In this document: piece by piece, positions 2,805 to 42,251 of the stretch
Layout: every line of letters begins with the position of its first letter
Position numbering within the stretch: the first letter of the stretch is position 1
From: Thermoplasmata archaeon
Lineage (GTDB): Archaea; Thermoplasmatota; Thermoplasmata; RBG-16-68-12
NCBI GenBank assembly: GCA_036514455.1
Contig: DATBXC010000097.1
Span: 1 to 42,251 of the forward strand
Reading direction: 5' to 3'
DNA length: 42,251 bases
Translations under genes and position numbers: made by a program
The notes under the pieces: generated by a model
What the model was told of the DNA's origin: nothing
Database searches by the model: none
What the model saw: only the letters and a program-made list of their open reading frames with translations

Positions 2805-3083
2805 GGCGCCCGGGCACAGCCGGGCGGGCGATATAACGGATGTGGTGCGCGATCCGACACGGGAAGGTTTATGACGGACGGGGCGCATCGTCGTGACGCT
2901 CCAGAGGTAGGCCGCACCGAAACCGTGACGTGCGCCGCAAGCCCTGGAGACGGCGCCGATTGGGTCCTCCCTAGACCGCCCCGAGACGGGGCTTCCGTGA
3001 AAGGGAGACAACCCCGGCGTCTAACAATCCCCCGGCAAGGGTCAGGGCGCGAAGAGAGCGATGCTTTGCCATGAGGCGCACTG

Positions 3084-8452: not shown

Positions 8453-9090
8453 CCCTCCAGCGCGGCGCGGAGGGCGTAGCGGGCGACGAGGTCCTCGCGC
8501 CCCTTCTGGGCCTCCTCCAGCGCGCCCGCCAGGATTCGACGGGCCGTCGTCCCTCCGAGGGCCTCGCCCGCGACCGCGAGGAAGTCCCCGTGGACCTCCC
8601 GGAACAGGGCCTTCAGCTGGTCCATCCCGCGGGCCCCGCCGCCGTCCAGGATCCGGGTGAACAGGTTCTCCTTCAGCCCGACGCGATTCCCCTCCAGGCG
8701 GGCCTTCAGGCGGTCCTCGATCCCCGGCCAGCCGAGCCGGTGGGCCTTCGCGAGGACGCCGGAGACGTAGTCCAGGTAGAAGCCGAGGGCCTCCCGCAGG
8801 GGCTCGGGCCCCGCCACGAACTCGAGGTCCAGGGTGATGCGGTGGCTCGCGAGCCGGTACTCGTACGCGCCCCGCGTCCGGGACTTCCGGAGCCGGCGCT
8901 CGAGGAACCCGAGGTCGTGCATCCCGCCCAGGAACTTCGAGGCGGTCGTCGTGTGGATCCGGAGGGCCCGGGAGACCTCCGTCGCAATCCGCCACTCGCC
9001 GGCGGACAGGTACCGGAGGATCGGGAGGCTGTGCTGCCCGCTCAGCAGGGCAACCGCCTCCGAGAACGCGTGCTCGTCGATTGAATCCAC
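8449..9090 (-). CDS. Winged-helix (ArsR/TrmB-like) DNA-binding protein with a helical C-terminal domain of about 130 aa
   Basis: 213 aa, GTG start at 9090. SLPILRYLSAGEWRIATEVSRALRIHTTTASKFLGGMHDLGFLERR is a typical wHTH. It is the first gene of the coupled three-gene module. Confidence 0.7.
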   Translation of the reverse strand: MDSIDEHAFSEAVALLSGQHSLPILRYLSAGEWRIATEVSRALRIHTTTASKFLGGMHDLGFLERRLRKSRTRGAYEYRLASHRITLDLEFVAGPEPLREALGFYLDYVSGVLAKAHRLGWPGIEDRLKARLEGNRVGLKENLFTRILDGGGARGMDQLKALFREVHGDFLAVAGEALGGTTARRILAGALEEAQKGREDLVARYALRAALEG

Positions 9091-13403: not shown

Positions 13404-13640
13404 TCAACGCGGGGTGGCCGCGACCGAGACCTTCCGCGCCCGCCTCCGGAACTCCTCCAACGCCTTCCCCTGGAACCGGTCCATCAGGGCCTTCACCCGC
13501 CCCTCCGTGGCGGGATCGGCCCGCGGTCCGACGTACTCGAACACTTGGACCCGCCGTCCGCCCCGGTCCTCGTAGTGCCACGCGTCCACGTACGCCTTTC
13601 CCTTGAGTTCCTTCACCCGCACGCCGTAGCCGAGTCGCAT
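13404..13640 (-). CDS. Small hypothetical protein (78 aa), bracketed by the two palindrome copies
   Basis: ATG start at 13640 and high GC3. The sequence begins MRLGYGVRVKELKGKAYVDAWHYEDRGGRRVQVFEYVGPRADP. This Y-x-W-x-Y ... Y-V-G-P hairpin-like pattern is one I recall from N-termini of some archaeal integrase or DNA-binding proteins. A helical KR-rich tail follows. No family is assigned. Confidence 0.5.
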   Translation of the reverse strand: MRLGYGVRVKELKGKAYVDAWHYEDRGGRRVQVFEYVGPRADPATEGRVKALMDRFQGKALEEFRRRARKVSVAATPR

Positions 13641-13651
13641 GGCCGGGGGAA

Positions 13652-13679
13652 GGAGTTGGTCTTATTTAAGACCAACTCC
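13652..13679. promoter_or_regulatory. Perfect palindrome GGAGTTGGTCTTA-TT-TAAGACCAACTCC (copy 2) containing a symmetric TATA-like core
   Basis: Read directly: 13-bp arms. The core cttatttaag at 13661-13670 lies 21-30 nt upstream of the small-ORF ATG (13640), which is a leaderless geometry. It sits in the divergent intergenic region shared with mvk. Confidence 0.6.
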
Positions 13680-13772
13680 CCGGGGTGGCCGAACGGGCCG
13701 CGCGCCGCCCACGACCCACGGCCTCCCGCCCGGGGAGAACCCTTAAGCCGCTCCCGCCGGTTCCGCGGCCCG

Positions 13773-14699
13773 ATGGCCCGGGCCTCCGCCCCCGGCAAGC
13801 TGATCCTGTTCGGCGAGCACGCGGTCGTCTTCGGCGAGCCCGCCCTCGCGACCGCGATCGACCTCCGGACGGAGGTGTACGCGCGGTTCCACGACGAGTG
13901 GCTCGTGGACGGCGCGTCCCTCCGGGACACGAAGTACGCGTACGTGCGGCGGGCCGTGGAGGCGAACTGGGACGGGCCCCCGCTGTGGCTCGAGATCCGC
14001 TCGATGATCCCCCTGGGCTGCGGCCTCGGCTCCTCCGCGGCGGTCACCGTCGCGACCCTCGGGGCCCTCGGCGCGCTGAAGGGGCGTGCGGACCCGGAGG
14101 CGATTGCCCGCGCCGCGTTCGACGTCGAGCACGAGGTCCAGGGCCGCGCGAGCCCGATCGACACGAGCACGGCGACCCACGGCGCGGCGGTGCTCATCCG
14201 CAAGTCGCCGGGAGACGGCCTCCTCTGGGGGATCGAGCGGGGCGAGCGCCGGTGGTTCCTCCACCACTGCTCCCTCCCCGCCGCGCGGTTCGTCGTCGGG
14301 AACACGGGCCTCGCCGCCGCGACGGGCCCGCTCGTGGCGGGCGTGAAGGCGCTCGTGGAGCGGGACCCGGGGGCGGCCGAGGCGGTGCGGGAGATCGGCA
14401 CGATCACCCTCGACGGGCTCCGGGCCCTCCAGGCGGGCGACCTCGTGCGCGCGGGGGCGCTGATGGACCGGAACCACGCCCTCCTGAACCGCCTCGGCGT
14501 GGGCCACCCGCTCCTCGACAAGCTCGTCGCGGCCGCGCGGCCCCACGGGTACGGCGCGAAGCTCACCGGGGCGGGCGGGGGCGGCAGCATGGTCGCGCTC
14601 ACGGACGAGCCCGACCGGGTGCGGGCCGCGATCGAGTCGGCGGGCGGGAAGGCGTACGTCGTGGAGACGGAGCCCCGGGGCCTGGAGGCGTCCCCGTGA
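13773..14699 (+). CDS. mvk: Mevalonate kinase
   Basis: Track ORF 13545..14699 trimmed to the ATG at 13773. MARASAPGKLILFGEHAVVFGEPALATAID is the GHMP N-terminal motif, LGCGLGSSAAVTVA is the GHMP ATP-binding motif and KLTGAGGGGSMVAL is the C-terminal motif. Confidence 0.9.
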   Translation: MARASAPGKLILFGEHAVVFGEPALATAIDLRTEVYARFHDEWLVDGASLRDTKYAYVRRAVEANWDGPPLWLEIRSMIPLGCGLGSSAAVTVATLGALGALKGRADPEAIARAAFDVEHEVQGRASPIDTSTATHGAAVLIRKSPGDGLLWGIERGERRWFLHHCSLPAARFVVGNTGLAAATGPLVAGVKALVERDPGAAEAVREIGTITLDGLRALQAGDLVRAGALMDRNHALLNRLGVGHPLLDKLVAAARPHGYGAKLTGAGGGGSMVALTDEPDRVRAAIESAGGKAYVVETEPRGLEASP

Positions 14700-14719
14700 T
14701 CCGGCGGCCCCACAAGGTG

Positions 14720-16030
14720 ATGGCGCCGCGCGGGGCCCCGCGCGCCGCGCCCGCGGAGACCGCCCCGCCGGCCGGCGGGCTGCTGGTCGTGCACGCGTCC
14801 GAGCTCCTCACCCTCCGGGGCCCGTGGGTCCGCGCCCGCCGCGGGGAGGAGATGCGGGACCTCGGGGTCGTCCCGGACGGCGCCGTGTACGTCGAGGCGG
14901 GCCGCATCAAGGAGGTCGGCGCCACGGACGAGGCCCTCCGCCGCCGGGGCGGCACGCGGGACGTGATCGACGCGACGGGCAAGGTCGTGATGCCCGGGTT
15001 CGTCGACCCGCACACCCATGTCGCGTTCGCGGGCTCCCGCCACGACGAGCTCGGGATGAAGGCGGAGGGCCTCTCCTATCAGGAGATCGCGGCCCGGGGC
15101 GGGGGGCTCCTGCGCACGGTGCGCGACACCCGCGCGGCCCCTCGCGAGGCCCTGGTCGCCGCGACCCGCCGGCGGCTCGACGGCATGCTCCGTTCCGGCA
15201 CGACGACCGCGGAGGTGAAGAGCGGGTACGGGCTCACGACGGAGTCCGAGGTCGCGATCCTGCAGGCCGTGGACGAGATCGCGAGCGCGCATCCGATGGG
15301 CCTCGTCTCCACGTTCCTCGGGGCCCACGCGGTCCCGCCCGAGTTCGAGGGGCGCGCGGACGCGTACGCGGACCTCGTGGCGGGCGAGATGCTCCCCGCC
15401 GTCGCGACCCGCACGGGTGCCCGGTTCTGCGACGCCTGGGTCGAGGACGGCTACTTCACCGCGGACCAGGCCCGACGGATCTTCGCGGCCGCCCGGGCCC
15501 TCCAGCTCGAGCCCAAGGTCCACGCGGACGAGCTCTCCGACGCCGGCGGGGCGGCCCTCGCCGCGGACGTCGGCGCGGTCTCCGCGGACCACCTGCTCCA
15601 CGCGTCGGACGCGGGCCTCCGGGCGATGGCGGAGAAGGGCGTGGTCGGCGTCCTCCTGCCCGCCACGTCCCTCGCGGCCCGCCTCCCGTTCGCGGACGCC
15701 CGCCGGCTGATCGCCGCGGGCGTGCCCGTCGCCCTCGGCACGGACTGCAGCCCCGCCTCCTGGAACGAATCGATGCAGGGCGTCCTCGCGCTCGCGACCC
15801 ACCGGCTCGGGATGCACCCGGAGGAGGCGATCGTCGCGGCGACGATCAACGCCGCGTTCGCGATCGGGAAGGGCCGGGACGTCGGGAGCCTGGAGCCGGG
15901 GAAGTTCGCGGACCTCCTCGTGATCGACGCGGAGACGCACGGCCACCTCGGATACCGCCTCGGCGGGAACCTCGTGGAGAAGGTCGTGGCGTCGGGGCGG
16001 GTCGTCGTCGACCGCGCGCCTTTACGATAG
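14720..16030 (+). CDS. hutI: Imidazolonepropionase-like amidohydrolase (HutI family)
   Basis: This is the 3' part of track ORF 13685..16030. It starts at the ATG at 14720. An alternative in-frame GTG at 14696 overlaps the mvk TGA as GTGA. The motifs PGFVDPHTHVAFAG, YQEIAARGGGLLRTVRDTR, TTAEVKSGYGL, TFLGAHAVPPEF, KVHADEL and SADHL match the HutI pattern as I remember it. Confidence 0.8.
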   Translation: MAPRGAPRAAPAETAPPAGGLLVVHASELLTLRGPWVRARRGEEMRDLGVVPDGAVYVEAGRIKEVGATDEALRRRGGTRDVIDATGKVVMPGFVDPHTHVAFAGSRHDELGMKAEGLSYQEIAARGGGLLRTVRDTRAAPREALVAATRRRLDGMLRSGTTTAEVKSGYGLTTESEVAILQAVDEIASAHPMGLVSTFLGAHAVPPEFEGRADAYADLVAGEMLPAVATRTGARFCDAWVEDGYFTADQARRIFAAARALQLEPKVHADELSDAGGAALAADVGAVSADHLLHASDAGLRAMAEKGVVGVLLPATSLAARLPFADARRLIAAGVPVALGTDCSPASWNESMQGVLALATHRLGMHPEEAIVAATINAAFAIGKGRDVGSLEPGKFADLLVIDAETHGHLGYRLGGNLVEKVVASGRVVVDRAPLR

Positions 16031-20589: not shown

Positions 20590-22308
20590 CTACGCGACCG
20601 CCAGCGGGATCTCGAGGTAGTCCGCCCCGGCGCCCGAGGACGTCATGAGGTACACGGCCACCGCGAAGTCCGCCGCCGCGGCGGATTCGGTCGAGAACGA
20701 GTACACGCGCTCGCCGCCCGCGTTCTCCGCGACGTCGAGCGCCACCACGCCGTTCGCGTGGATGACCCGCGTGATCACCCGGTACGAGGAGTCCGAGGGC
20801 GCGCCCACGTGGATCGCGTACGTCCCGCCGCCCAGGTCCTCCGACACGACGGAGGTGAGGCGCGCGGGTTTCGGTCCCACGGGCTCGAACTGGGCGAGGG
20901 TGTACGCGGCCGTCGTGTGGACGACGATCGGGTCGATCACGACGTTCGCGGGGACGATCCGGAGCTTCGCGTCGAAGGGCCCGCCGCGGCCCGCCGCGAG
21001 GACCTCGGCGCCCGCGAAGTCGATCCGCACCCAGCTCTGGTCCGTGCCCAGGTTCACCCGGTTCCACGCGGTCGTCACGACGTGGTCCTCCGTGGGGACG
21101 CTCCGCATCAGGGCGACGTTGCTCGGCGCCGAGCCCGCGGCGTACAGGGTGCCGGAGACGTCGTACCAGCCCCAGTTCCGGACGGACACGGCCGCCTCGA
21201 CGGTGAGGGACTCGAACAGCCCGTCGCCGTCGGCGTCCGTCCCGTAGTCCCGGACCTCGCCTGTGAACTCGATCGGCATCCAGGGCGCCTGGAAGTCGTA
21301 CCAGTGGAGGGTCGCCTCGAGGCGGGTCTCCGCCTTCAGGCCGAGCGGCGTGGGCGGGAGCACGTACGGTTGCCGCAGGCCGAGCTCGGACCCGTCCGGC
21401 GGCGCCGCGAACGCGGGCTCCTCCACGAACTCCGCGGTCTCGGAGCCGCAGCACGGGTGGGATTCCGTCTGCACCTGCGCCTCGATGACCGTGATGTGGA
21501 TGTCCGTCGGCCCGTCGATCCCGCTGAGGTACACCTGCTCGGGCGACACGGAGAGCGTGACCTCCTGGGCGCCCGGTTCCATCGAGACGAACTCCGCCCC
21601 GACCGTGCTCGGGTCCCCCGTGGGGGGCCCGAAGAAGCGGTTCGTGACGCCCTGCAGGAACAGGTCGTCGCTCTCCGCCCGCACCGAGTAGAAGCCCTGC
21701 TCCCGGACCGTGAGCGGGACGCGGATCGTGTACGCGTCCACCTTCCCGTCCCCACTGGAGTCGTCCTGGACCGCGGTCACGGGGCCGATGGAGACGACCA
21801 CGGGCTGCTCCTGGAACGATGCGGCCCCGTACGCGGGGGTCCGGAAGCTCCACTCGTACACCCGGCCGATCATGTCCGGGCTCGGCGGGATCTCGAACGC
21901 GCTGTCCCGGTCCTCCCGGATGAACGTCAGCCGCACGACATACGGCCCGTCGATGCCGCTCGCGCGGATGTCGGGGCCCCAGAACCCGACGCCGAACACG
22001 TTCGGCCCGCGGTCGAGCTCGACGCGCCCCGTCGTCTGCGCGATCGCCGCCCCCGTCGACGGCTGCAGCAGCACGGCGTTCGCGCTGTAGTCGCCGGACT
22101 CGGGGAGGTCGACCCGCGCCTTCACGACCAGGTACTCGGGCGTCCCGTCGCCATCGTGGTCCGTGGGGCTCGCCTGGAACCCGCCGGGGAGCTGGTCCCC
22201 CCAGAACATGTACCGGTACACGGCCGCACCCGCAATCGCGCTCGCAGCGACCACGCACAGGCCGAACAGGATGACCGTGGCTCGCCGTGACGCAGGATCC
22301 CTCGTCAA
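20590..22308 (-). CDS. N-terminally anchored secreted or surface protein with three DxDGDG-type putative Ca-binding motifs
   Basis: Track ORF 20590..22518 trimmed to the in-frame TTG at 22308. That TTG is preceded by GGAGG (22316-22320) with a 7-nt spacer. The product begins (M)TRDPASRRATVILFGLCVVAASAIAGAAVY. Motifs DHDGDGTPE, DSSGDGKVD and DADGDGLFE are present. The start is uncertain. Confidence 0.6.
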   Translation of the reverse strand: MTRDPASRRATVILFGLCVVAASAIAGAAVYRYMFWGDQLPGGFQASPTDHDGDGTPEYLVVKARVDLPESGDYSANAVLLQPSTGAAIAQTTGRVELDRGPNVFGVGFWGPDIRASGIDGPYVVRLTFIREDRDSAFEIPPSPDMIGRVYEWSFRTPAYGAASFQEQPVVVSIGPVTAVQDDSSGDGKVDAYTIRVPLTVREQGFYSVRAESDDLFLQGVTNRFFGPPTGDPSTVGAEFVSMEPGAQEVTLSVSPEQVYLSGIDGPTDIHITVIEAQVQTESHPCCGSETAEFVEEPAFAAPPDGSELGLRQPYVLPPTPLGLKAETRLEATLHWYDFQAPWMPIEFTGEVRDYGTDADGDGLFESLTVEAAVSVRNWGWYDVSGTLYAAGSAPSNVALMRSVPTEDHVVTTAWNRVNLGTDQSWVRIDFAGAEVLAAGRGGPFDAKLRIVPANVVIDPIVVHTTAAYTLAQFEPVGPKPARLTSVVSEDLGGGTYAIHVGAPSDSSYRVITRVIHANGVVALDVAENAGGERVYSFSTESAAAADFAVAVYLMTSSGAGADYLEIPLAVA

Positions 22309-22342
22309 CTCGTTCCCTCCTTCACCCGCTAATGCCCTCCCT

Positions 22343-22369
22343 CGATATTTGGAGTTGTTGGTATAGTTC
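22343..22369. promoter_or_regulatory. Divergent promoter island between the surface-protein gene and the radical-SAM gene
   Basis: The AT-rich sequence cgatatttggagttgttggtatagttc has two TATA-like boxes. The first is at 22343-22352 (serving the minus-strand gene). The second is at 22360-22369 (serving the plus-strand gene). Confidence 0.4.
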
Positions 22370-22408
22370 GGAAGGGGTCCAACCGGCTTGCGGGGGAATG
22401 CCCGCGGA

Positions 22409-23536
22409 ATGCCACGCCCCGCCGCGCCCGCCAACCTTATCTCCCCCCACCGGCTCGGTCCCCCCGTGCGCGTCACGGAACGCCCCTGCGGGGGCTCGGT
22501 CCGCGGGTCCCTCCCCATCGGCTGCCTCCAGTGCGAGGAGGGGGCGAAGATGGTCCTCTTCGTGACCGGCCTATGCGGCTTCCACTGTGTCTACTGCCCC
22601 GTCTCGGACGAGAGGATGTACCACGACGTCGTCTACGCGGACGAGAAGCGCGTCGCCTCGGACGAGGACGTGCTCGAGGAGGCGCGGGCGATCCGCGCGA
22701 AGGGGGCGGGGATCACGGGCGGGGACCCGCTGGACGCCGTGGAGCGCACGTGCCACTACATCCGGCTCCTGAAGCGAGAGTTCGGCCCGGGCTTCCACAC
22801 GCACCTGTACACGATGACCGCGGACCCCGAGAAGGTCCGGGGCCTCGCGGAGGCGGGCCTCGACGAGCTCCGGTTCCACGTCCCTCCCGGGATGTGGGCC
22901 CGCGCGGACCGGTCCCCGTACGTCGGGGCCTCCCGCCTCGCGCGGGAGCTCGGGGTCACCGTGGGCCTGGAGGTCCCCCTGCTCCCGGAGCGGAAGGAGG
23001 ACCTCGTGAAGCTCATCGAGTGGGCGGAGGCGGAGGGCCTCGCGTTCGTGAACCTGAACGAGCTCGAGTACTCCGACGCGAACTACGCCCGCATGAAGCG
23101 GCAGGGCTACGAGATCAAGCACGAGCTCTCGTACGGCGTGAAGGGCTCGGACGAGGCCGCCCTCGAGATCCTCCGGCGGCCCTGGCGGACCACGGTCCAC
23201 TACTGCACGAGCGGCTACAAGGACGGGTGGCAGCTCCGCAGCCGGATCAAGCGGCGTGCGGAGAACGTCGCCCGCCCGTGGGACGTCGTCACGGAGGACG
23301 GGACCCTGCTCAAGGGTGTGATCGAGGGGGACGGACTTGACGAGGTGATGCGGGACCTGTCGAGGACGCACGGCGTGCCGGAGGACCTGATGGGCCTCGA
23401 CGGCGCGCGCCGCCGCCTCGAGGTCGCGCCGTGGATCCTCGAGGAGCTCGCCGCCCGCCTCGGGAGGCCCTCGTACCTTGTCGAGGAGTACCCGACCGCG
23501 GACGGGCTCGAGGTCGAGCGGACCCGCCTCCCCTAG
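22409..23536 (+). CDS. Radical SAM protein (COG2108-like, related to activating enzymes; function unknown)
   Basis: Track ORF 22388..23536 starts at a TTG. I prefer the ATG at 22409. GSLPIGCLQCEEGAKMVLFVTGLCGFHCVYCPVS contains the CxxxCxxC radical-SAM cluster motif, preceded by the conserved LPxGCxxCxxG segment. Confidence 0.75.
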   Translation: MPRPAAPANLISPHRLGPPVRVTERPCGGSVRGSLPIGCLQCEEGAKMVLFVTGLCGFHCVYCPVSDERMYHDVVYADEKRVASDEDVLEEARAIRAKGAGITGGDPLDAVERTCHYIRLLKREFGPGFHTHLYTMTADPEKVRGLAEAGLDELRFHVPPGMWARADRSPYVGASRLARELGVTVGLEVPLLPERKEDLVKLIEWAEAEGLAFVNLNELEYSDANYARMKRQGYEIKHELSYGVKGSDEAALEILRRPWRTTVHYCTSGYKDGWQLRSRIKRRAENVARPWDVVTEDGTLLKGVIEGDGLDEVMRDLSRTHGVPEDLMGLDGARRRLEVAPWILEELAARLGRPSYLVEEYPTADGLEVERTRLP

Positions 23537-29937: not shown

Positions 29938-32720
29938 TCCTCCGTGGAGGGCTCCTCCTCCTCGACCTCGGCCTCTTCCTCGGGGATCTCGATGTTCATG
30001 TCCTTCTCCGTGAGCCCGTACGACGCCATCTCCTGCTGCTTCAGGCGCTCCTGCCAGGACGGCTCCTCCCCGAGGACCTCCTGGAGGATGTCGTCAATGT
30101 CCACGGCGCTCCCCCGCACGGAGCGGGATGGGTCCACGCCGTCCTCCCCGAAGCGGAACTGGATGATCGTGTCCCCCGTGTTCCGGACCGTGCCGTCCTC
30201 TTTCACCTTGAGGTCCTCGAGCGCATTGATGAGCCGCCGCTGCATGTAGCCGGACCGGGACGTCCGCACGGCCGTGTCGACCAGCCCCTCGCGCCCGCCC
30301 ATCGCGTGGAAGAAGTACTCCGTCGGGTAGAGCCCCGACTTGTACGAGGACTTCACGAAGCCCTTCGCCTCGGCGCCGAGGTCCCCCTTGCGGAAGTGCG
30401 GGAGGGTCCGGTTCCAGTACCCGCGGTGGAGGCGCTCGCCCCGGACCGCCTGCTGCCCGATCGAGCCCGCCATCTGGGACAGGTTCAGCATCGAGCCGCG
30501 GGCGCCGGACCGGGCCATGATCACCGCGGAGTTCTCCATCCCGAGGTGCTTGGACGCGATCTGACCGGCCTGGTCACGCGCCCGGCCGAGGGTCTTCATC
30601 GCCTCGACCTCGAGGGTCTCCTCCAGGGACCGCCCGGGCATCTGCTCGAGCTCCCCGCGCTTGTACGCCTCGACGAGGGCCTCGACGTCCGCGACCGCCT
30701 TCCGCAGGACCTCCGTGATCTGCTTCTTCGCCTCCTCCGGGATGTCCTCGTCGTCGATCCCCGTCGTGAACCCGCGCAGCATGATCGCCCCAATCGCGAT
30801 CTTCGTCGCCTTGTCGATGAACTCCCGCGCCGCGTCGGGCCCGTAGTCCCGCGCGATCTTCTCGAGGATCTTCCCCTTGAAGGCGCCGATCGCGTTCTCG
30901 TCGATCGTCCCGCAGACAACTTCCCCGTTCTTGATCACGACGAGGCCGTCGTCCTCGCGCAGCTCCCGGAGGCCGACCTGCCCCTTCGGGGCGATCGAGG
31001 CCTTGAACGTGAGGCTGAGGTCCTTCGGCAGGATCAGGGAGAAGATCTGCTTCCCGGTCCAGTACTCCACGCCGCCCTTCTTGACCGCGGGCGGCGGGAG
31101 GCCCGAGACCCCGACCCGGCTCAGGATGTACGCGGTCTCGTCCTTGTTGAACTTCGCGTCCTTGTACGTCAGGAGGAAGGCGCCCGTGATGTGGTCGTGG
31201 ATCCCGCCGATGACGGGGCCGCCGAACCGCGGGGACAGGATGTGCTCCTGGACCCGCATCAGGACGCGGGCCTCTGCGCGGGCCTCCTCGCTCTGGAGGA
31301 CGTGGAGGTTCATCTCGTCCCCGTCGAAGTCCGCGTTGTACGGCGGGCACACGGCGAGGTTGAACCGGAACGTCTTCTGCTGCATCACGCGGACCTCGTG
31401 GGCCATCATCGACATCCGGTGCAGGGAGGGCTGCCGGTTGAACAGGACGATGTCCCCGTCCAGGAGCTGGCGCTCCACGATGTACCCGATCTCGACGGTC
31501 TCCGCGACCGCCTCTGCGTTCTTGTCCGTCACGCGGATCCGCCGGCCGTCCGAGCGGATCACGTAGTTCACGCCCGGAAGGTAGAACTCGCCGAGAGGCG
31601 GGGCGGGCGTCGGGCCCCGCTTCACCCACTCCTTCACGATGCCGAGGTTATACGCCTGCACGTGGATCGGGACGGTGAGCTCGCGGGCGGCCTCCACGGG
31701 CACGCCGACCTCGTTGATCGAGAGGACGGGGTCCGGCGAGATCACGGTCCGCGCGCTGAAGTTCACCCGCTTCCCGCTCAGGTTCGAGCGGAAGCGGCCC
31801 TCCTTGCCCTTCAGCCGCTGGACGAGGGTCTTCAGGGGCCGGCCGGACCGGTGGCGGGCGGGCGGGATCCCGCTCGTCTGGTTGTCGAAGTACGTCGTGA
31901 TGTGGTACTGCAGGAGCTCCCACAGGTCCTCGACGATGAGCTGGGGCGCGCCCGCGTCCCGGTTCTCCCGGAGGCGCTGGTTGATCCGGAGCACGTCGAC
32001 GAGCTTGTGGGTCAGGTCGTCCTCGGAGCGGTCCCCGCTCTCCAGGGTGATCGAGGGCCGCACGGTGACGGGCGGCACGAGCAGCGCGGTCAGGACCATC
32101 CACTCCGGGCGCGCGACGTCCGGGTTCACGCCGAGGACCCGGAGGTCCTCGTTCGGGACCCGCTCGAGCCGCTCCCGGACCTCCTTCGGGGTGAGCTTGT
32201 GGCCCGCCTCGCGGAACGTCGTCGGCTTGTCCAAGGTGATCCGCTGCTGCTCCTCCCCGCAGTGCGGGCAGCGCTGCCGTTTCGTCGCCTCCCGCGCGGT
32301 CTCCTTCGTGACGTACTGGATGTCCTGCTCCCCGCCGAGTTCCTCCATCTGCTCCATCTCGTCCCGGAACTCCTCCGCCTGCTGCTTCGTCAGGAGGAGG
32401 CGCCCGCACCGGCGGCACGTGGCCTGGAGGAGCTTCTTGAGCTCCTTCACGTACCCGACGTGGATCACGGGCATCGCGAGGTCGATGTGGCCGAAGTGGC
32501 CGGGGCAGTCGTCGACCTTCCCGCCGCACGTCTTGCAGCGGAGCCCCGGCTCGATCACTCCGAGGTGGGAGTCCATGAGCCCCATGTCGATGGGGAAGCC
32601 GTCGTCGTCGTACGTGTCCGCGGTGATGATCTTCGTCGCGGACATCCGCCGGATCTCGTCCGGGCTGAGGAGGGCGAACTTGATCGAGCGGATCCGCTTT
32701 GTGACCCCGCGCGCGGCCAT
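29934..32720 (-). CDS. rpoA1: DNA-directed RNA polymerase subunit A' (Rpo1N)
   Basis: Track ORF 29934..32903 trimmed to the ATG at 32720, which overlaps the rpoB TGA (TGATG). The motifs are [44 protein letters not shown] and the catalytic [10 protein letters not shown]. 928 aa with an acidic C-terminal tail. Confidence 0.95.
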
Positions 32721-35700
32721 CACTGGAGGTCCTCCAGTTGGAGCCGCATGGCCACGCCAAGCGACAGCATCTCGTCGAGAAGGAGCTTGAACGCGTACGA
32801 GGTCTGGATGGGGTAGATCTTCGAGTTGTTCTCGCAGACCGGGCAGCGGAGCATCCCCTTCCGGTCTTTGATCGCGAAGTGGCCACAGTCCGTGTTCCCG
32901 CACACGTACTGGATCGTCCCGTCGGACTCGTCGAGCAGGCGGTCCTTGATCACCATCGCCGCGCCGTGCCCGATCAGGCAGTCCCGCTCCATCTCCCCGA
33001 ACCGGAGGCCGCCCTGGCGGGAGCGCCCCTCCGTGGGCTGGCGGGTCAGGATCTGGACGGGGCCGCGGCTCCGGACGTGGAGCTTCCCGGAGACCATGTG
33101 GTGGAGCTTCTGGTAGTAGATCACGCCGACGAAAATCTCCGCGGGAATCATCCGCCCCGTCGTCCCGTCGTACAGGATCTCCTTGCCGTTCGACTTGAAC
33201 CCGTTCGCCTCGAGCGCGGCGCGCAGGCTGTCCTCCCGCTCCCCGCTGAACGGCGTGCCGTCGATGAAGCGCCCCTCGAGCGCCCCGATCTTCCCGCCGA
33301 TCTGCTCGAGCACGTGGGCGACCGTCATCCGCGACGGGATCGCGTGCGGGTTGATGATCAGGTCCGGGATGATGCCCTCCGCGGTGAACGGCATGTCCTC
33401 CTGCTGGGCGATCAGGCCGATGACCCCCTTCTGGCCGTGGCGGGAGGCGAACTTGTCCCCGAGCTCCGGCACCCGGAGGTCACGGACCTTCACCTTGGCG
33501 AGCTTCGACCCGTTCTCCGATTCCGTGAGCATGACGGAGTCGACCCAGCCGGACTCTCCGTGGCGGACCGTGATCGACGTCTCCCGCCGCTTCTGGGGCG
33601 TCAGGAAGTCCGTCTCCTCCTCGAGGAACCGCGGCGGGCTCGTCTTCCCGATGAGGACCTCCCCGCCCTGGACGAGGACCTCCGGCGAGATCAGGCCGTC
33701 GTCGGGCGTGAGGTTCGCGTAGCTGAGGTCCGCCCGCGCGCCCCGGACGTCCGGGGACGGGATCTCGAAGTGGTCCTCCTGCCCGCCGGGGTACCGGCGC
33801 TCCTCCGCGCGGTACGTCCGCATGAACGAGGACCGGCCAAGGCCGCGGTCCACGGAGGCTTTGTTCATCACGATCGCGTCCTCCATGTTGTACCCGTGGA
33901 ACGACATCACCGCGACGACGAAGTTCTGGCCCGCGGGCCGCTCGTTGAACGAGAGGAACTTCATCGACGCCGTCTGCACGAGCGGCTTCTCGGGGTAATG
34001 GAGCAGGTGGCTCCGGGTGTCCGGGCGGGTGCGGTAGTTGCTCGCCGCGAGCCCGAGGGACTGCTTCGCCATCCCCGCGCCCATCGTGACCCGCGGGGAG
34101 GAGTTGTGCTCCGGATACGGGACGAGCCCGCTCGCGACCCCCAGGATCACGAGGGGGTCCACCTCGAGGTGCGTGTGGTCCTCGGTCAGCGAGCCCTTCA
34201 CGGTGAACGTCTTCCCGCAGTGCTTGCACTGGAGTTCGACGGTGTCCCCCGCGGCCCCGAGGTTCACCCACTCCAAGTCGCTCCGGCTGAGGGGCTCCTT
34301 GCACTCCTTGCACCGGGCGGGGACCTCGAAGGGGTAGAGGGCGATGTACGAGTCCTCCTCCTCCTCCGCGTCGATCCACTCGACGATCCCGTTCCGGACG
34401 AGGTCGCTGAAGCGCCACTTCCCGATCTTGAGGTCCTCCAGGTGCTTCCGGGTGAGGACGAGCCGGTCGTTCTTCACGACGAGGAGGGGGCGGCGGATCC
34501 GGCCCTCGTCGCAGTTGATCACGATCTCGCTCATGTTCTCGTCGAAGTGGACGTTCACCTCCGGGCTCAGGAGGCCCGAGCGCCGCCGCTCCCGAATCGC
34601 GGCGATGAGCTCTGGCGGGGATTCGTGGAGGCCGACAAGGTCGCCGTTCACGTACACCCGCGTGGCGGTCGTCTGGCCCTTCACCTGGCGGGTCCCGAGG
34701 TCCGCGAGGAGGAGCTTCACCTCGTCCTCCGGGAAGCCCTCGGAGACGTCGATCGCGAGGGACAGGTTCTTGACGAGCCCGCAATTCTGGCCCTCCGGCG
34801 TCTCGTTCGGGCACAGCCGGCCCCACTGGGTCGGGTGGAGGTCCCGGGCCTCGAAGTGGGGCTGGGACCGCGTGAGCGGGGACGTGACCCGCCTCAGGTG
34901 GCTCAGCGCGGACATGTTCGACGTGCGGTCTAGGAGCTGGCTCACGCCCGCGCGGCCGCCGACCCAGTTCCCCGTCGCGAGGGCGTGGAGGAGCCGCTGG
35001 CTCAGCAGGTCCGGGCGGATCGCGGAGCTGATCTTGATCTCCCGCCGCCGGGCGTACGAGCGCTCGAGTTGGTACTTCAGGTCCTTCACCAGGTTCGCGA
35101 ACGCGACGCGGAACAGGTCCTCCATGAGGTCCCCGGCGAGCTTCAGCCGCTTGTTCGCGTAGTGGTCCTTGTCGTCCTCCCGCCGCTTCCCGAGGTGCAG
35201 CTCGAGGACGGAGCGCGCGACCCGCCCGAGGAAGACCGCCTTCTTGATCCGGTCCTCGCGGGTGTCACCGAGGTGCGGGAGCAGGGACCGGTCCAGGATT
35301 GACTCGACCTTCTTCGTCCGGTACTCCTTCGCCTGCCCGGTCGCGAACTTCTTCTCGAGGTAGCTCACCGCGTCGTCGCGCGTGAAGATCCCGTTCGGCG
35401 GGTACAGCTTCTTGTTCTGGCACTCCTCGATGTTCGCGTAGACGATGTTCGCCATCTCCTGCACGCTGACGATCGCGTTGTAGATCTCCTCGTCCTTCTC
35501 CATCCCGAGGGCCTTCATCAGGATGATCAGCGGGATCTGCCCCGAGGCGGTCGGGACCGTGACGATCAGCATGCCGTCCTTCTTCATCTCGACGAGCGTG
35601 AGCGCGCGGTACCCCTCGCGCTGGGAGAACACCTTCGCGACGGGCACGCGCCGGCCGTACCGCTCGTTGTGCTCGACGAGCACGCGGTTCGGCGCGAGGT

Positions 35701-36310
35701 CCTCGAGGGAGATCAGGGCCCGTTCCGTGCCGCCGATGATGAAGTACCCGCCCGCGTCGACCGGGTCCTCCCCCAATTCGACGAGCTTCTCGCGGTACTC
35801 CCCCTCGGAGAGCTCGCCCTCGATCTCGAGGTTCTCCTTGTGCAGGGAGCACTTCTTCGACTTCACCATGATCGGCAGGTTCCCGATGTGCACGCGCTCG
35901 GGCTCCCGCTCGATCCCGTTCTCGACGACGGTGAAATCCAGGTAGATCGGCGACGTGTAGTTCAGGTTCCGGAGGCGGGCCTCCATCGGCGTCAGCGCGT
36001 GGGTCGCCCCGTTCGCCTCCTTCACGATTGGCGTGCCGACGGAGATCGTGGGCTTCGCGTCCAGGTCGATGCGGGCCCGGTCGTCCCGGCGCCGGCCGAT
36101 CCGGATCTCGATGATGTCCCCCTCCGTGCGGTCCTCGTCGAGCTTGAAGATCCCGCGGCGGTCGTCCTCCGGCGAGGAGCGCATGCTGTCGACGATCCGC
36201 TGCATCCGCGAGCTCGGGTTGTCGATCGTCGGCAGGAAGTCGTTGAACGACGCGATGTGGTGGTTCACGATGGAGCGTTCATGGAAGAACGCCTCCACGA
36301 GTTCTCGCAT
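32720..36310 (-). CDS. rpoB: DNA-directed RNA polymerase subunit B (Rpo2), unsplit
   Basis: 1196 aa. The motifs are [32 protein letters not shown] and the C-terminal Zn motif CGNTDCGHF...CPVC. The B'/B'' parts are fused in one ORF. Confidence 0.97.
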
Positions 36311-36315
36311 TCCGC

Positions 36316-36567
36316 CTACCTCCCTATCACGAGTCGATACGCCTCGGACACGCCCGCCGTCTCCGACAGGCGCGTGACCTTGATGATCCGGCCCTCGCCG
36401 ATCGGGCCGTGGACCCGCTCCAAGACCTTGATCACGGGGTCCGCCTTCTTGATCTTCGGCAGCTGGTCCTTCGTGATCCGAAGGGCCGCAAGGATCCTCG
36501 CCGCCTCCTCGTCCGACAGCAGCCGGTGCTCAGGAACGAGCCTGTGCTGGAGCACGTTGAACCTCAT
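36316..36567 (-). CDS. rpoH: DNA-directed RNA polymerase subunit H (Rpo5)
   Basis: Track ORF 36316..36705 trimmed to the ATG at 36567 ([45 protein letters not shown]). The discarded 5' extension overlaps the tRNA gene. Confidence 0.9.
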
Positions 36568-36627
36568 CCTGGGGTCGCCTCCCTCGCCAGCGTGAGCCTT
36601 CTCCCGTGGTTCCGCATGGACCCCGGA

Positions 36628-36815
36628 CGGGCCCGCGGGGATTTTCGGGCCCTGTCGCCGGAGCAACAAGGCGCTTTCGAACCCCGGACCATCTGGTTTC
36701 TTCACCAGCCTGTCCTCGGGTATTGCCCGAGAGCAAGTCGGCTAAAAGCCAGATGCTCTTTCTAGGAACGACGCCTCTGTTCCACCGCCGTCCAACCTAG
36801 CTGAGCTACGGGCCC
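36628..36815 (-). tRNA. tRNA-Lys (anticodon UUU) interrupted by three introns (D-loop, anticodon loop 37/38, T-loop)
   Basis: Hand-folded from the minus strand.
- Exons: 36795-36815, 36743-36759, 36676-36697 and 36628-36641.
- Joined sequence (74 nt): GGGCCCG-TA-GCTC-AGCTAGGTA-GAGC-A-TCTGG-CTTTTAA-CCAGA-TGGTC-CGGGG-TTCGAAT-CCCCG-CGGGCCC-G.
- All four stems are perfectly paired.
- Introns are about 35, 45 and 34 nt.
- Each 3' junction has a 4-5 bp helix followed by an AA|N bulge, which is BHB-like.
- Splice points are ambiguous by 1-2 nt. No CCA is encoded. Confidence 0.8.
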
Positions 36816-36995
36816 GCGGGGGGTGCGGCGGTCCATGCGAGCACCGACCTAGTCGGATGTGCTAGTTAAAGTTTGCTCCCCGCGGTAAACCCATCCACCA
36901 CCAGGGGTGGGCGCGAAGGGACGCGGGCGAAGCCCGCCCCAGGGCGCGGGATTCTCCATAGCTTGATATAGGAACCGGGGATTCGAGCCGCCCTC

Positions 36996-37166
36996 ATGCT
37001 CCAGCACGAGCGGCGGTGCAACTCCTGCGGCGTCGTCCTCCACGGGCTCGGCACGACCGCGTTCCCCTGCCCGAGTTGCGGCAAGGGGACGATCGGGCGG
37101 TGCCGGCGGTGCAGGGACCAGAGCGTCGCGTACCGGTGCCCGGAGTGCGGGTACCAGGGACCCTGA
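36996..37166 (+). CDS. Small four-CxxC zinc-ribbon protein (COG2888-like, the Zn-ribbon gene that typically precedes aEF-1beta)
   Basis: Absent from the ORF track (56 aa). My own translation is MLQHERRCNSCGVVLHGLGTTAFPCPSCGKGTIGRCRRCRDQSVAYRCPECGYQGP. GC3 is high. TATA-like cttgatatagg at about 36961-36972 lies roughly 25-35 nt upstream. It ends 10 nt before the aEF-1beta gene. Confidence 0.75.
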   Translation: MLQHERRCNSCGVVLHGLGTTAFPCPSCGKGTIGRCRRCRDQSVAYRCPECGYQGP

Positions 37167-37176
37167 AGGTTTTCAG

Positions 37177-37437
37177 ATGGGCAAGGTCGCCGTCACGTTC
37201 CGGATCATGCCCGAGGACGTCGAGGTGGACCTCGAGGCGGTCCAGAGCCACGTCCGGTCCTCGCTCCGGGAGAAGCTCAAGAAGCTTGAGGTGAAGCCCG
37301 TGGCTTTCGGGCTGAAGGCGCTCGAGGCAATCGTCGTCGTGGACGACGCGAGCGGGGAGATGGAGCAGGTCGAGGCCGCGCTCAGTCGGATCCCGGGCGT
37401 GGGCGGGGTCGAGACGACCGAGGTCACGCTGCTCTAG
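37177..37437 (+). CDS. ef1b: Translation elongation factor aEF-1 beta
   Basis: 86 aa. The sequence MGKVAVTFRIMPEDVEVDLEAVQSHVRSSL...VKPVAFGLKALEAIVVVDDASGEMEQVEAALSRIPGVGGVETTEVTLL is a typical aEF-1beta. Confidence 0.9.
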   Translation: MGKVAVTFRIMPEDVEVDLEAVQSHVRSSLREKLKKLEVKPVAFGLKALEAIVVVDDASGEMEQVEAALSRIPGVGGVETTEVTLL

Positions 37438-39964: not shown

Positions 39965-40087
39965 GGCGTAAATGAAGTTTGGCGGGCCGAGGATGCTACA
40001 TCCGCGGCAAATTCATAAGTACGATTCCCGACGCTTCGTGTCCCGGGGGGTGCCACCCTGGGGATTCGCGGCGACATCAACGGGCGC

Positions 40088-42251
40088 GTGCCATTCTCGC
40101 TCATCGCGGTGATTGCCCTGCTCCTCGCGGGGCTCAGCTCGGTCTACGTGGCGACGACGGGGCGGCAGGCCGCGGAGGCGGAGGTCCAGCTCCAGCAGCT
40201 CCGGGTCCTCGAGTCCGTGGCGGGTGCGGTCCACCACGGCGTCGAGCTCGAGGCGCACGCCCTCGCGCTCGAGGCGATCCAGCGGGCGTCCGCGGGCCCG
40301 GGGGACCCCGACCGCGCGAACCGGGAGTTCGAGCGCCTCGTCGCGGAGCGCCTGGAGCCGAGCTTCCCGCGGGACGTCCGCGGCTTCACGGTGTCCCTCG
40401 ACGCGGTCCGCGTCGCGATGTTCCTCCAGCCGATGCGGACGATCGACGTCGTCCCGTCCGGGCGTGCCTTGCCGGTGTCCCCCGACCGGACCGCGGAGGC
40501 CCTGGACACGTCCCGCCCCGCCGTCCTGGGGGAGACGTCGCGGGTCGCGTACTTCAGCCTCGCCGGGTCCGCGAACTACACGGTGGCCCGCGGGGACTCC
40601 GTGTACCGGGCGGGATTCCCCTTCCGGGGCCTCGTCGACTCCCCGTTCCCCTTGCTCCAGTCCGCGGTCCAGGGTCTCCGGGACGCCGCGGACGGGTCCG
40701 AGTCCGAGTTCGCGCGGATCGTGCGGTACGTCCTCACGACCGCCGCGCAGTTCCGCGTCCTCCAAGGGGTCGCGATGGACCCGTATGGCGAGCCGGGCAC
40801 GTCGACCGGAAGCGTCCTGACGCCGACCGACGTCGAGATCGCGGTGAACCTGGCCCTGATGCTCGAGGAGCTGCGGAGGTTCCGGGACGTCGACGAGCGG
40901 TCCCCGGCCGCGCTCGACGCGCTCCATTTCCTGAACCGGGCGGGACGGTACGCGGGCCAGGGCCTCGTGCCGGACGTGACCGAGCGCACGATGGACCGGC
41001 TCCTCCAGGCGTACGCGGGGGGCGGGGCCACGGACCCCGCGGACCTCTTCGCGCTGTACAGCGCCTTTGACGCGGCCCCCGTGCGGTTGAACCGCGTCCT
41101 CGCGCAGGTCCTGTCCGCCCTCCTGGACCAGCAGATTCTCCGGGTGTTCGAGTACCTCGGGGCCGAGTCGGCCCTGGACTGGGGGCTCAAGGGGTGGGAG
41201 GAGTCCGTGCGGGACATCGAGGCGTTCCTCTCCTGGGTCACGGGCGGGAGCCACGAGGCGGAGCTCGTGAAGGGTTTCGTTCGGGAGCTGTTCTCGATGG
41301 CGGGGGAACCCGCCACGCTCCTCGGGCCGTATCCCGTGGACCTCCCCGCGCGGGACTACACCGTGCCGAACGCGGACGGGACCCCGTTGACCGTCTCCGT
41401 CGCCGCCCACACGACTCCCGTCGAGTTCGATGCGGTGGACGTGTTCAACGACCACGACGACCTGTGGAAGGCCCACTACGACGCCGTGTTCGCGGACCAG
41501 GTCCGGGTCGTCCACCAATCCGCGCGGGACTTCCTGACGGACCTCGCTTCGCGGGTCGCGAACGACCTGAGCCTGATGGGGGCGATCCCGAACCCGACGC
41601 TGCAGGGCGCGATCGACCCGAAGGACGCGGAGTCCGTGACGGAGTTCGTCCGGCGGGCCCTCGACTCGGGCCTGGACCAGGCGATCGCCCGCCTGCGGAG
41701 CGACCCCGCGTACCTCGACGCCCTGATCGGGAACGCGTGGCGCGCGCAGGCGGACACGGTCCGAGAGGTCGTGGACTTCGTGATCGCGGACCACGACGCG
41801 CTCGCGTCCAGCACGGCCCAGATCGGGCTCGCGCGCGACCGGCTCGCGGCGCACCTCGAGGACCAGGCGCCTTTGGACCCGGACTACTGGTCCCTGGACG
41901 CCACCGGGCTGCAGGGCCTCCGGGACGCGATTCGGGCGGACGTGGACGCGGCCTCGTGGGTCCCGTGGGGGTACGTGAAGGCGACGGACCGGGACCGCGC
42001 GCGGCTCGAGTCCGTCTACGCGCGCGCCACGGACGCGGCGACGCCGCCCGAGGGCGGCGGGATCTACCAGCGCCTGCGGGACCTCGTCGTCGGCGAGACG
42101 GGGATCCTGTCGCGGGGCGGGGAGATCCTGCGGGCCTGGGGGAACGGGCTCCTCTCCGCGGAAGACCTGCACAACGTCAAGCTCCTCGTCGAGACGCCCG
42201 CGGACCCGTTCGAGTTCTGGCATGGCGACCGGGAGGCCGCGGTCGTGGCGG
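40088..42251 (+). CDS. Large hypothetical protein, N-terminally membrane-anchored; 5' 721 codons only, since the gene runs off the right edge
   Basis: Absent from the ORF track because it is edge-truncated. The frame is open from the TAA at 40016-40018 to the window end, with strong GC3 bias and normal amino-acid composition. The first conventional start is the GTG at 40088, giving (M)PFSLIAVIALLLAGLSSVYVATTGRQAAEAEVQLQQLRVLES... It is largely helical and rich in Asp, Ala and Leu. No family is recognised. The 736-aa antisense track ORF 40013..42223 is the artefact. Confidence 0.7.
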   Translation, partial: MPFSLIAVIALLLAGLSSVYVATTGRQAAEAEVQLQQLRVLESVAGAVHHGVELEAHALALEAIQRASAGPGDPDRANREFERLVAERLEPSFPRDVRGFTVSLDAVRVAMFLQPMRTIDVVPSGRALPVSPDRTAEALDTSRPAVLGETSRVAYFSLAGSANYTVARGDSVYRAGFPFRGLVDSPFPLLQSAVQGLRDAADGSESEFARIVRYVLTTAAQFRVLQGVAMDPYGEPGTSTGSVLTPTDVEIAVNLALMLEELRRFRDVDERSPAALDALHFLNRAGRYAGQGLVPDVTERTMDRLLQAYAGGGATDPADLFALYSAFDAAPVRLNRVLAQVLSALLDQQILRVFEYLGAESALDWGLKGWEESVRDIEAFLSWVTGGSHEAELVKGFVRELFSMAGEPATLLGPYPVDLPARDYTVPNADGTPLTVSVAAHTTPVEFDAVDVFNDHDDLWKAHYDAVFADQVRVVHQSARDFLTDLASRVANDLSLMGAIPNPTLQGAIDPKDAESVTEFVRRALDSGLDQAIARLRSDPAYLDALIGNAWRAQADTVREVVDFVIADHDALASSTAQIGLARDRLAAHLEDQAPLDPDYWSLDATGLQGLRDAIRADVDAASWVPWGYVKATDRDRARLESVYARATDAATPPEGGGIYQRLRDLVVGETGILSRGGEILRAWGNGLLSAEDLHNVKLLVETPADPFEFWHGDREAAVVA

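Follow-up and report, generated by a model that had tools for sequence, protein, structure and literature searches.

The stretch of DNA analysed here, which we refer to as the window, covers 42,251 nucleotides (nt) of contig DATBXC010000097.1 (assembly GCA_036514455.1) from a Thermoplasmata archaeon, and on its minus strand, from 36815 to 36628, lies a tRNA-Lys(UUU) gene interrupted by three introns, one in the D-loop, one at the canonical position 37/38, and one in the T-loop. With exons in capitals, and exons and introns alternating, the reverse complement of 36815..36628 reads GGGCCCGTAGCTCAGCTAGGT, tggacggcggtggaacagaggcgtcgttcctagaa, AGAGCATCTGGCTTTTA, gccgacttgctctcgggcaatacccgaggacaggctggtgaagaa, ACCAGATGGTCCGGGGTTCGA, aagcgccttgttgctccggcgacagggcccgaaa, ATCCCCGCGGGCCCG; the computed coordinates place four exons and inserts of 35, 45, and 34 nt within 188 nt. 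All seven segments are on the minus strand. Exon 1 (36795..36815) supplies positions 1–20 of the tRNA, comprising the 5′ acceptor strand, U8 A9, the 5′ D-stem strand, and the D-loop through G18 G19 U20, and is followed by intron 1 (36760..36794; 35 nt) at position 20/21 in the D-loop. Exon 2 (36743..36759) holds positions 21–37, with the 3′ D-stem strand, A26, the 5′ anticodon stem strand, and C32 U33 U34 U35 U36 A37, and is separated by intron 2 (36698..36742; 45 nt), at the canonical position 37/38, from exon 3 (36676..36697), which carries positions 38–59, including the 3′ anticodon stem strand, the variable loop UGGUC, the 5′ T-stem strand, and U54 U55 C56 G57 A58 A59. Intron 3 (36642..36675; 34 nt) lies at position 59/60 in the T-loop, and exon 4 (36628..36641) completes the gene with positions 60–73, that is U60, the 3′ T-stem strand, the 3′ acceptor strand, and the discriminator G73.

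Joining the four exons yields a 74-nt RNA, GGGCCCGTAGCTCAGCTAGGTAGAGCATCTGGCTTTTAACCAGATGGTCCGGGGTTCGAATCCCCGCGGGCCCG, which ARAGORN calls as tRNA-Lys(ttt), with acceptor, D, anticodon, and T stems of 7, 4, 5, and 5 base pairs (bp) respectively and every pair formed. Direct reading of this product finds the expected core nucleotides U8, A14, G15:C48, G18 G19, A21, U33, and A37, as well as G53:C61, U54 U55 C56, and A58 in the T arm and the discriminator G73 at the 3′ end; CCA is not encoded. The anticodon loop, CUUUUAA, has seven nucleotides with U33 and A37 in place, and CTTTTAA is kept in all 26 of the distinct homologues compared. Folding of the unspliced precursor (188 nt) has an energy of −97 kcal/mol (z = −5.0; none of 200 dinucleotide shuffles is as good) and gives a structure in which the acceptor stem is closed and three long arms hold the inserts. 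When presented with the unspliced locus, ARAGORN makes no call with or without its intron option, and Rfam returns no match either at the gathering threshold or at E≤10; such misses are to be expected of a gene with three introns and do not count against it. The initial annotation, made from the sequence, had proposed four pieces of a 74-nt tRNA-Lys spread over 188 nt of the minus strand, inserts of about 35, 45, and 34 nt, perfect pairing in all four stems, and invisibility to default tRNA finders, and each of these proposals is borne out, the insert lengths and coordinates exactly.

All three introns show bulge-helix-bulge (BHB) features, and the three lie in order on one strand of a single colinear tRNA gene. 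In each, the end of the 5′ exon pairs with the nucleotides just before the 3′ site to form a central 4-bp helix (H) between two 3-nt bulges, with the predicted cut sites symmetric across H. For intron 1, C16 U17 A17a G18 (CUAG) forms H with cuag of the intron; on the 5′ side the bulge is G19 U20|u, after which comes an outer helix (h′) of 8 bp, and the 3′ bulge is a a|A21, with the D stem directly after it and A14 and G15 unpaired on the opposite strand. For intron 2, the anticodon stem acts as the exonic helix (h), C32 U33 U34 U35 (CUUU) pairs with gaag as H, and U36 A37|g and a a|A38 form the 5′ and 3′ bulges, respectively; the interior of this intron is a hairpin, and its h′ is shifted by one unpaired U in the window, although two related loci, L001 and L003, have a strict intron 2. 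For intron 3, the 5-bp T stem serves as h, U54 U55 C56 G57 pairs with cgaa to make H, A58 A59|a and a a|U60 form the 5′ and 3′ bulges, respectively, and h′ consists of 1 bp, a one-nucleotide bulge, and then 10 bp. Measured against a strict hBHBh′ motif, in which h and h′ of at least 2 bp abut the bulges, introns 2 and 3 thus have a strict 3′ half with h′ offset by one unpaired nucleotide. In intron 1 h′ is long, but the D stem that would serve as h is separated from H by the unpaired A14 and G15, and because these two residues lie unpaired opposite the 3′ bulge, the D-loop motif is relaxed and HBh′-like.

The junction pairings that had been described (CTAGG/CCTAG, CTTT/GAAG, and TTCG/CGAA) and an AA|N bulge at each junction are all present, and the proposed BHB geometry holds for all three introns with the qualification that the 3′ site of intron 1 departs from the strict form. 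The D-loop and 37/38 sites also stand as proposed, as does a T-loop site, but the T-loop junction is placed at 59/60 and not at 58/59. In the window the two placements give an identical mature sequence. The BHB geometry favors 59/60, and under this placement nucleotide 59 is an A in 63 of 63 distinct contexts, as it is in nine of nine relatives that have no T-loop intron (their T-loops read TTCGAAT in eight cases and TTCGAAC in one); under 58/59 the same nucleotide would vary (A in 36, G in 16, C in 6, and T in 5), and we have rejected that placement. Geometry and the invariance of nucleotide 59 together point to 59/60 as the predicted site of the T-loop intron.

The split gene is not peculiar to this contig. 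The same arrangement of a split tRNA-Lys(UUU) located 13–180 nt upstream of the RNA polymerase gene rpoH is seen in 10 of 12 related GTDB genomes, the two exceptions being an Undinarchaeota locus without a match and one whose upstream sequence extends for just 57 nt, and it is present in six near-identical public contigs as well. The L001 and L003 loci, from Thermoplasmata metagenome-assembled genomes (MAGs), have all three introns, of 27, 29–30, and 33 nt, and the L004–L011 loci, from Methanomassiliicoccales and related MAGs, have the D-loop and T-loop introns with exons 2 and 3 contiguous and no anticodon-loop intron. A metagenome scan with the D-loop junction as its pattern, which required the CTAGAA of intron 1, found 119 further loci, and together with the earlier ones these amount to 105 distinct precursors: 61 with D-loop and T-loop introns, 35 with all three, six with the D-loop intron only, and three with D-loop and anticodon-loop introns. 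The contigs that carry the homologous loci range from 34 to 71% GC. A further scan of all the DNA gathered for the analysis, for other tRNAs with the same T-loop intron, gave only chance matches in coding sequence.

Comparison of these precursors shows two very different patterns of change. The exons are nearly invariant across the 105 precursors, whereas the intron interiors diverge freely, with lengths of 27–55, 20–66, and 27–40 nt for introns 1, 2, and 3 respectively, while the junction helices and bulges are kept. The H of the D-loop intron is retained in 88 of 88 distinct introns, as the search pattern forces it to be; its h′ has at least 3 bp in 97% of these 88 introns compared with 13% after shuffling, and up to six pair types occur per position. 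In the anticodon-loop intron H is paired in 33 of 35 distinct homologues, and in the T-loop intron, which the search left unconstrained, in 62 of 63 (CGAA in 49, CGGA in 11, and CGGG in 2). The spliced products behave as tRNAs: among 26 distinct spliced homologues the cloverleaf is paired in 99.3% of cells and eight pairs have changed on both sides, a result matched by none of 500 shuffles (slid partners pair in 32–53%), and removal of the introns at the predicted sites thus gives a canonical cloverleaf supported by covariation. The pairs that have changed on both sides join exon 1 with exon 4, exon 2 with exon 3, and exon 3 with exon 4. Separately, we note that among public contigs with identical exons and RpoH (L013, L015, and L017) there is a single T/C difference in the terminal hairpin of intron 2 (gctcTcggg versus gctcCcggg), in which a U-A pair is lost with the C variant; the variation is at the population level and limited to the intron interior, as is expected for unconstrained intron cores.

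The anatomy of the sequence, the conserved geometry of the motifs, the covariation in the spliced product, and the persistence of the gene in its split form in a large clade are direct observations, and on their strength we regard the locus as very probably a functional tRNA-Lys(UUU) gene with three BHB introns, predicted to be at positions 20/21, 37/38, and 59/60. Several points weigh against this reading. Splicing at this locus is a prediction from the sequence; the conservation of CTAGAA is not independent evidence, the hexamer having been imposed by the search pattern; the 3′ site of intron 1 is a 3×2 internal loop and not a clean bulge; and the genes for the splicing endonuclease EndA, the ligase RtcB, and any other tRNA-Lys of this genome are not seen in the 42-kb window. 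In addition, labelled relatives (Methanomassiliicoccus) have an alpha'2-type EndA that is devoid of the crenarchaeal and ARMAN specificity loops (CSL and ASL), and the wild-type alpha'2 EndA of Archaeoglobus fulgidus hardly cuts D-loop introns in vitro (PMC3241643, PMC5829648).

In tblastn searches with five EndA sequences, neither the window nor 950 kb of related loci yields an EndA, and neither EndA nor RtcB is among the 30 window open reading frames (ORFs) annotated by Pfam. Searches seeded with the Methanocaldococcus jannaschii EndA, checked against PDB 1A79, were then extended with profiles. A search from a protein of a Thermoplasmatales MAG returned only low-GC marine-type proteins; searches with profiles, with representatives, and with a profile of high-GC members returned EndAs of labelled relatives, none of them tied to the genome of the window. 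The enzymes recovered by profile include those of Methanomassiliicoccus luminyensis (351 amino acids), Methanomassiliicoccus sp., a Methanomassiliicoccales archaeon, and Thermoplasmatales archaeon BRNA1, together with those of Thermoplasmata and Thermoplasmatota MAGs and a family of high-GC homologues of 340–375 amino acids. All of the recovered relatives' proteins are two-unit EndAs with Pfam domains in N-C-N-C order and the catalytic Tyr/His/Lys only in the C-terminal unit, and the alignment of the M. luminyensis protein to the alpha'2 enzyme of A. fulgidus runs over their full length. The insertions that make up the CSL and ASL loops occur at the position corresponding to EKGDL 174–178 of A. 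fulgidus (PMC3241643, PMC3488258), and the relatives' enzymes align across this site without a gap and without an insertion, as when FYGKKIGRVMQLSLIEA is set against FYGSEKGDLVTLSLIES. None of the relatives tested (Methanomassiliicoccus and high-GC Thermoplasmata-like) accordingly has the inserted loop, with its key lysine, of broad-specificity EndAs.

We also note some variation among these proteins at the beta-turn that is the site of the crenarchaeal and ARMAN specificity loops. Three Methanomassiliicoccales EndAs (P0394, P0385, and P0409) have a basic GKK(I/L/V)G(R/K) motif here, the high-GC relatives have GRPLG(D/E), and A. fulgidus has GSEKGD; the lysines of the basic motif may or may not replace the loop lysine. 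A further EndA, P0285 (MCA1813760.1), is labelled as coming from a Halobacteriales archaeon MAG; it has a computed isoelectric point of 8.5 and clusters with soil-derived high-GC homologues at 66–88% identity, and its label may be unreliable.

Because an alpha'2-type enzyme such as that of this lineage appears too strict for the relaxed D-loop site, it could be proposed that the gene is functional but that the D-loop insert is removed outside the standard EndA pathway, be it through a different nuclease, through a second EndA paralogue or a beta-like subunit, or only once further processing or modification has taken place. The relaxed 3′ site with its unpaired A14 and G15 and the two-unit Methanomassiliicoccus EndA without an insertion at the CSL/ASL site both speak for such a route, and so does the behavior of the A. 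fulgidus enzyme, which, besides its poor activity on D-loop introns, barely cuts the HBh′ intron at 20b/21 of Methanopyrus kandleri (PMC5829648). According to reviews, only (alpha-beta)2 and epsilon2 enzymes cut relaxed motifs efficiently (PMC6379350), and a conserved D-loop intron in this clade thus strains the current model. Against a non-standard route, other orders with alpha'2 enzymes also have a few non-canonical introns (Table S7 of PMC8450103). Moreover, H, both 3-nt bulges, and h′ occur at the exact BHB spacing in the 88 distinct D-loop introns, as selection by EndA predicts. We know of no other removal system for such short inserts in archaea, and we consider removal by a non-standard route to be highly unlikely.

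A second alternative is that the locus is a decayed, non-functional copy of a tRNA-Lys gene, in which the inserts are junk flanked by chance pairing. It draws on the absence of a call by default tRNA finders and Rfam, on the failure of our searches to identify the host EndA, and on the fact that the other tRNA-Lys genes of the genome have not been seen. It does not account for near-invariant exons in 105 distinct precursors with compensatory changes between exons, for the persistence of junction helices and bulges while the interiors drift, or for the maintenance of position, promoter, and rpoH synteny, a pattern that is not expected of a pseudogene. Since the compensated pairs join different exons, the exons must meet in one RNA, and conservation and covariation exclude the decayed-copy scenario that the initial annotation had raised; the chance that some form of it is correct is exceedingly small.

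The remaining alternative, that the N terminus of an extended RpoH of 129 amino acids (ORF 36316..36705) is encoded here and that the tRNA-like pieces are coincidental, has a GTG-started open frame across exon 3, intron 3, and exon 4 in its favor but is next to impossible, as the Rpb5_C domain matched by Pfam is confined to the 78 residues at the C terminus of the ORF, public contigs carry an 83-amino-acid product that starts MRFNVLQH and is preceded by GGAGG, the RpoH proteins of relatives begin at the same FNVL.H motif with extensions that are unrelated or lacking, and long spurious ORFs are common at 70% GC. The initial annotation had dismissed this ORF as wrongly running through the tRNA gene, and so it does in its spurious 5′ extension, although the last 252 nt are a genuine rpoH.

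Three other candidates were considered and rejected. An intron-encoded box C/D guide RNA of the tRNA-Trp type, considered for intron 2, lacks its box motifs, as direct reading of the three introns finds no RUGAUGA or CUGA. A split or permuted tRNA gene is at odds with the four pieces being contiguous, colinear, and behind one promoter-like element. A group I or group II intron was likewise considered and rejected.

The genomic setting is that of an RNA polymerase operon. The rpoH gene, encoding the 83-amino-acid subunit H/Rpb5 C-terminal domain, lies at 36316..36567 on the minus strand, 60 nt downstream of the tRNA, with its ATG at 36567 and GGAGG at 36578–36582, and exactly this 83-amino-acid product is called in public contigs (40 blocks), which come from several ENA and JGI metagenomes. 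In essentially every related locus the tRNA is the immediate upstream neighbor of rpoH-rpoB. RpoH is found by tblastn in 124 of the gathered loci, and seven of the eight tRNA loci without a match have less than 100 nt of downstream sequence. On the same strand rpoH is followed by rpoB, rpoA′, rpoA′′, and nusA. The rpoB gene (32720–36310, minus strand) is a single unsplit gene encoding 1196 amino acids, an arrangement that fits the Thermoplasmata type and not the split rpoB of methanogens or halophiles. Upstream and divergent from the tRNA are a zinc-ribbon ORF, aEF-1beta, and a phosphate ATP-binding cassette transporter. The zinc-ribbon ORF encodes 56 amino acids with four cysteine pairs and stands immediately before aEF-1beta (Pfam EF1_GNE), the two lying at 36996–37437 on the plus strand and divergent from the tRNA-Lys promoter region; the position of aEF-1beta is kept in the near-identical contigs L013–L018, and the zinc-ribbon ORF is not among the called genes of those contigs.

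Two sequence elements upstream of the tRNA are candidates for expression signals. A BRE/TATA-like element (B recognition element and TATA box), gcAAACTTTAAC, lies at 36865..36876 on the minus strand, approximately 50–61 nt upstream of tRNA position 1, and may act as the promoter; when 107 distinct 5′ flanks of homologous loci are compared, nearly all have a TATA-like hexamer at −65 to −52. A candidate transcription start, GCATG, lies at 36834..36838 on the same strand, about 20 nt upstream of the tRNA, and recurs at the same distance in many relatives among the flanks listed. Initiation there would leave a 5′ leader of about 20–25 nt for removal by RNase P. The spacer between tRNA and rpoH is mostly 60–100 nt; TATA-like motifs (5 of 75) and T-runs (2 of 75) are rare in it, and its end resembles a Shine-Dalgarno sequence, which makes it plausible that the tRNA is co-transcribed with the RNA polymerase operon, of which it may form the first element.

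As to the host, the window is about 70% GC throughout, and the closest genomes by RpoH are three MAGs with 73–75% identity (two designated Thermoplasmata archaeon and one Thermoplasmatota archaeon), with Methanomassiliicoccales next at 58–67%. The organism is thus an uncultured high-GC Thermoplasmata archaeon related to the Methanomassiliicoccales, and is not a member of the Thermoproteales.

Elsewhere in the window there is a long open frame at 3084–8612 (minus strand; 1842 codons from stop to stop) with a coding-type GC bias at third codon positions, in which the sole Pfam match is a KaiC/RecA-type ATPase domain at residues 294–530, the other approximately 1300 residues being unmatched. Three further ORFs, at 13613–16021 (minus), 20590–22590 (minus), and 40019–42251 (plus), have 802, 666, and at least 744 codons from stop to stop, respectively; their GC by codon position is coding-like and none has a Pfam match at E≤1e-5, and we note that the first of them, possibly a shadow ORF, overlaps a GHMP-kinase gene that runs on the opposite strand. 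Two Rfam hits, one resembling the H/ACA-like RNA HgcG at 3029–3096 (plus, E = 0.38) and the other CRISPR-DR20 at 30362–30394 (plus, E = 2.3) inside rpoA′, are far under the gathering threshold and are most likely due to chance.

We can propose a pathway by which the tRNA would be made. Transcription would start from the BRE/TATA-like element about 55 nt upstream and would probably continue into rpoH-rpoB. The precursor would then fold as a cloverleaf in which the D, anticodon, and T arms are each lengthened by a 4-bp exon-intron H between 3-nt bulges, and EndA is predicted to cut after the second nucleotide of each bulge, at G19 U20| and |A21, at A37| and |A38, and at A59| and |U60. An RtcB-type ligase would join the four exons, RNase P and a 3′ nuclease would trim the ends, and CCA, which the gene does not encode, would be added. 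From established archaeal tRNA splicing we infer the enzymes and their chemistry of cleavage, the sequence of these steps, and the co-transcription with rpoH.

Neither the mechanism nor the intron positions are novel. Positions 20/21 and 59/60 are documented sites of BHB introns (PMC4090602), and it is established that a tRNA gene can have as many as three introns (PMC4033280). What is unexpected is the lineage, and the window's gene is a member of an old and conserved rpoH-linked family. A survey of 217 genomes with tRNAscan-SE 2.0 placed all 16 three-intron genes that it found in the Thermoproteales, and none among 6970 euryarchaeal genes (PMC8450103). Table S7 of the same survey lists, without comment, six non-canonical introns and one two-intron gene in three Methanomassiliicoccales genomes (PMC8450103), and no paper on introns in the tRNAs of Methanomassiliicoccales or Thermoplasmatota turned up in our literature search. 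The lineage was not previously thought to have tRNA genes as heavily split as this one.

Comparison with known systems reveals both similarities and differences. The Thermoproteales (for example Pyrobaculum and Thermofilum) similarly have up to three short BHB introns per tRNA gene at canonical, D-arm, and T-arm sites (Sugahara et al. 2007/2008, as summarized in PMC4033280 and PMC8450103), in genes whose exons are colinear and on which standard finders fail; the host here is, however, a member of the Thermoplasmatota and not a crenarchaeon, and the introns are old, vertically conserved, and carried by a single rpoH-adjacent tRNA-Lys(UUU), whereas in the Thermoproteales they are spread over much of the tRNA set. 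The closest published parallel to intron 1 is the 20b/21 intron of pre-tRNA-Glu(UUC) in M. kandleri, a D-loop intron located immediately ahead of position 21 and relaxed at its 3′ site, accompanied by a 37/38 intron, and also in a euryarchaeon; that organism differs in having an (alpha-beta)2 EndA, two introns, a different tRNA, and no T-loop intron (PMC5829648). Within the same broader clade, the homologous rpoH-upstream tRNA-Lys(UUU) of Methanomassiliicoccales MAGs shares the 20/21 and 59/60 introns but has no anticodon-loop intron, while the clade of the window has all three. The soil Asgard archaea (Atabeyarchaeia and Freyarchaeia) are likewise uncultured soil and wetland hosts, in which multiple non-canonical tRNA introns have since been reported, but 92–95% of their tRNA genes are affected, the evidence here concerning a single gene, and they differ in phylum and in the expected type of EndA (PMC11291895).

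There are consequences for annotation as well as for mechanism. ARAGORN and Rfam overlook this tRNA-Lys(UUU), part of which lies under a spurious ORF extension and which may be the sole copy in the genome; were genes of this kind to go unannotated, the clade's MAGs would seem to lack the tRNA, skewing inferences of completeness and codon usage. The locus also extends the distribution of three-intron tRNA genes to the Thermoplasmatota; the largest published survey has no euryarchaeal example of such a gene. The mechanism is a textbook one, and it is the apparent mismatch between the introns and the EndA architecture that poses a concrete and testable question: old D-loop and T-loop introns in a clade with a narrow-specificity alpha'2 architecture provide a direct test of the model in which EndA architecture and intron diversity co-evolve, and cultured Methanomassiliicoccus is available as an experimental system. 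We suggest tentatively, as a possibility that is somewhat more doubtful than not, that a euryarchaeal clade consisting of the Methanomassiliicoccales and high-GC soil Thermoplasmata has kept a relaxed D-loop intron and a T-loop intron, and a third in some branches, in its rpoH-linked tRNA-Lys(UUU) with apparently only an alpha'2-type EndA without a CSL or ASL loop, and that this tRNA may also be the 5′ element of the RNA polymerase operon transcript. If this is true, the alpha'2 EndA of the clade has a wider substrate range than the A. fulgidus and Thermoplasma acidophilum paradigms, and the accepted rule that ties multiple or non-canonical introns to (alpha-beta)2 or epsilon2 enzymes would need revision.

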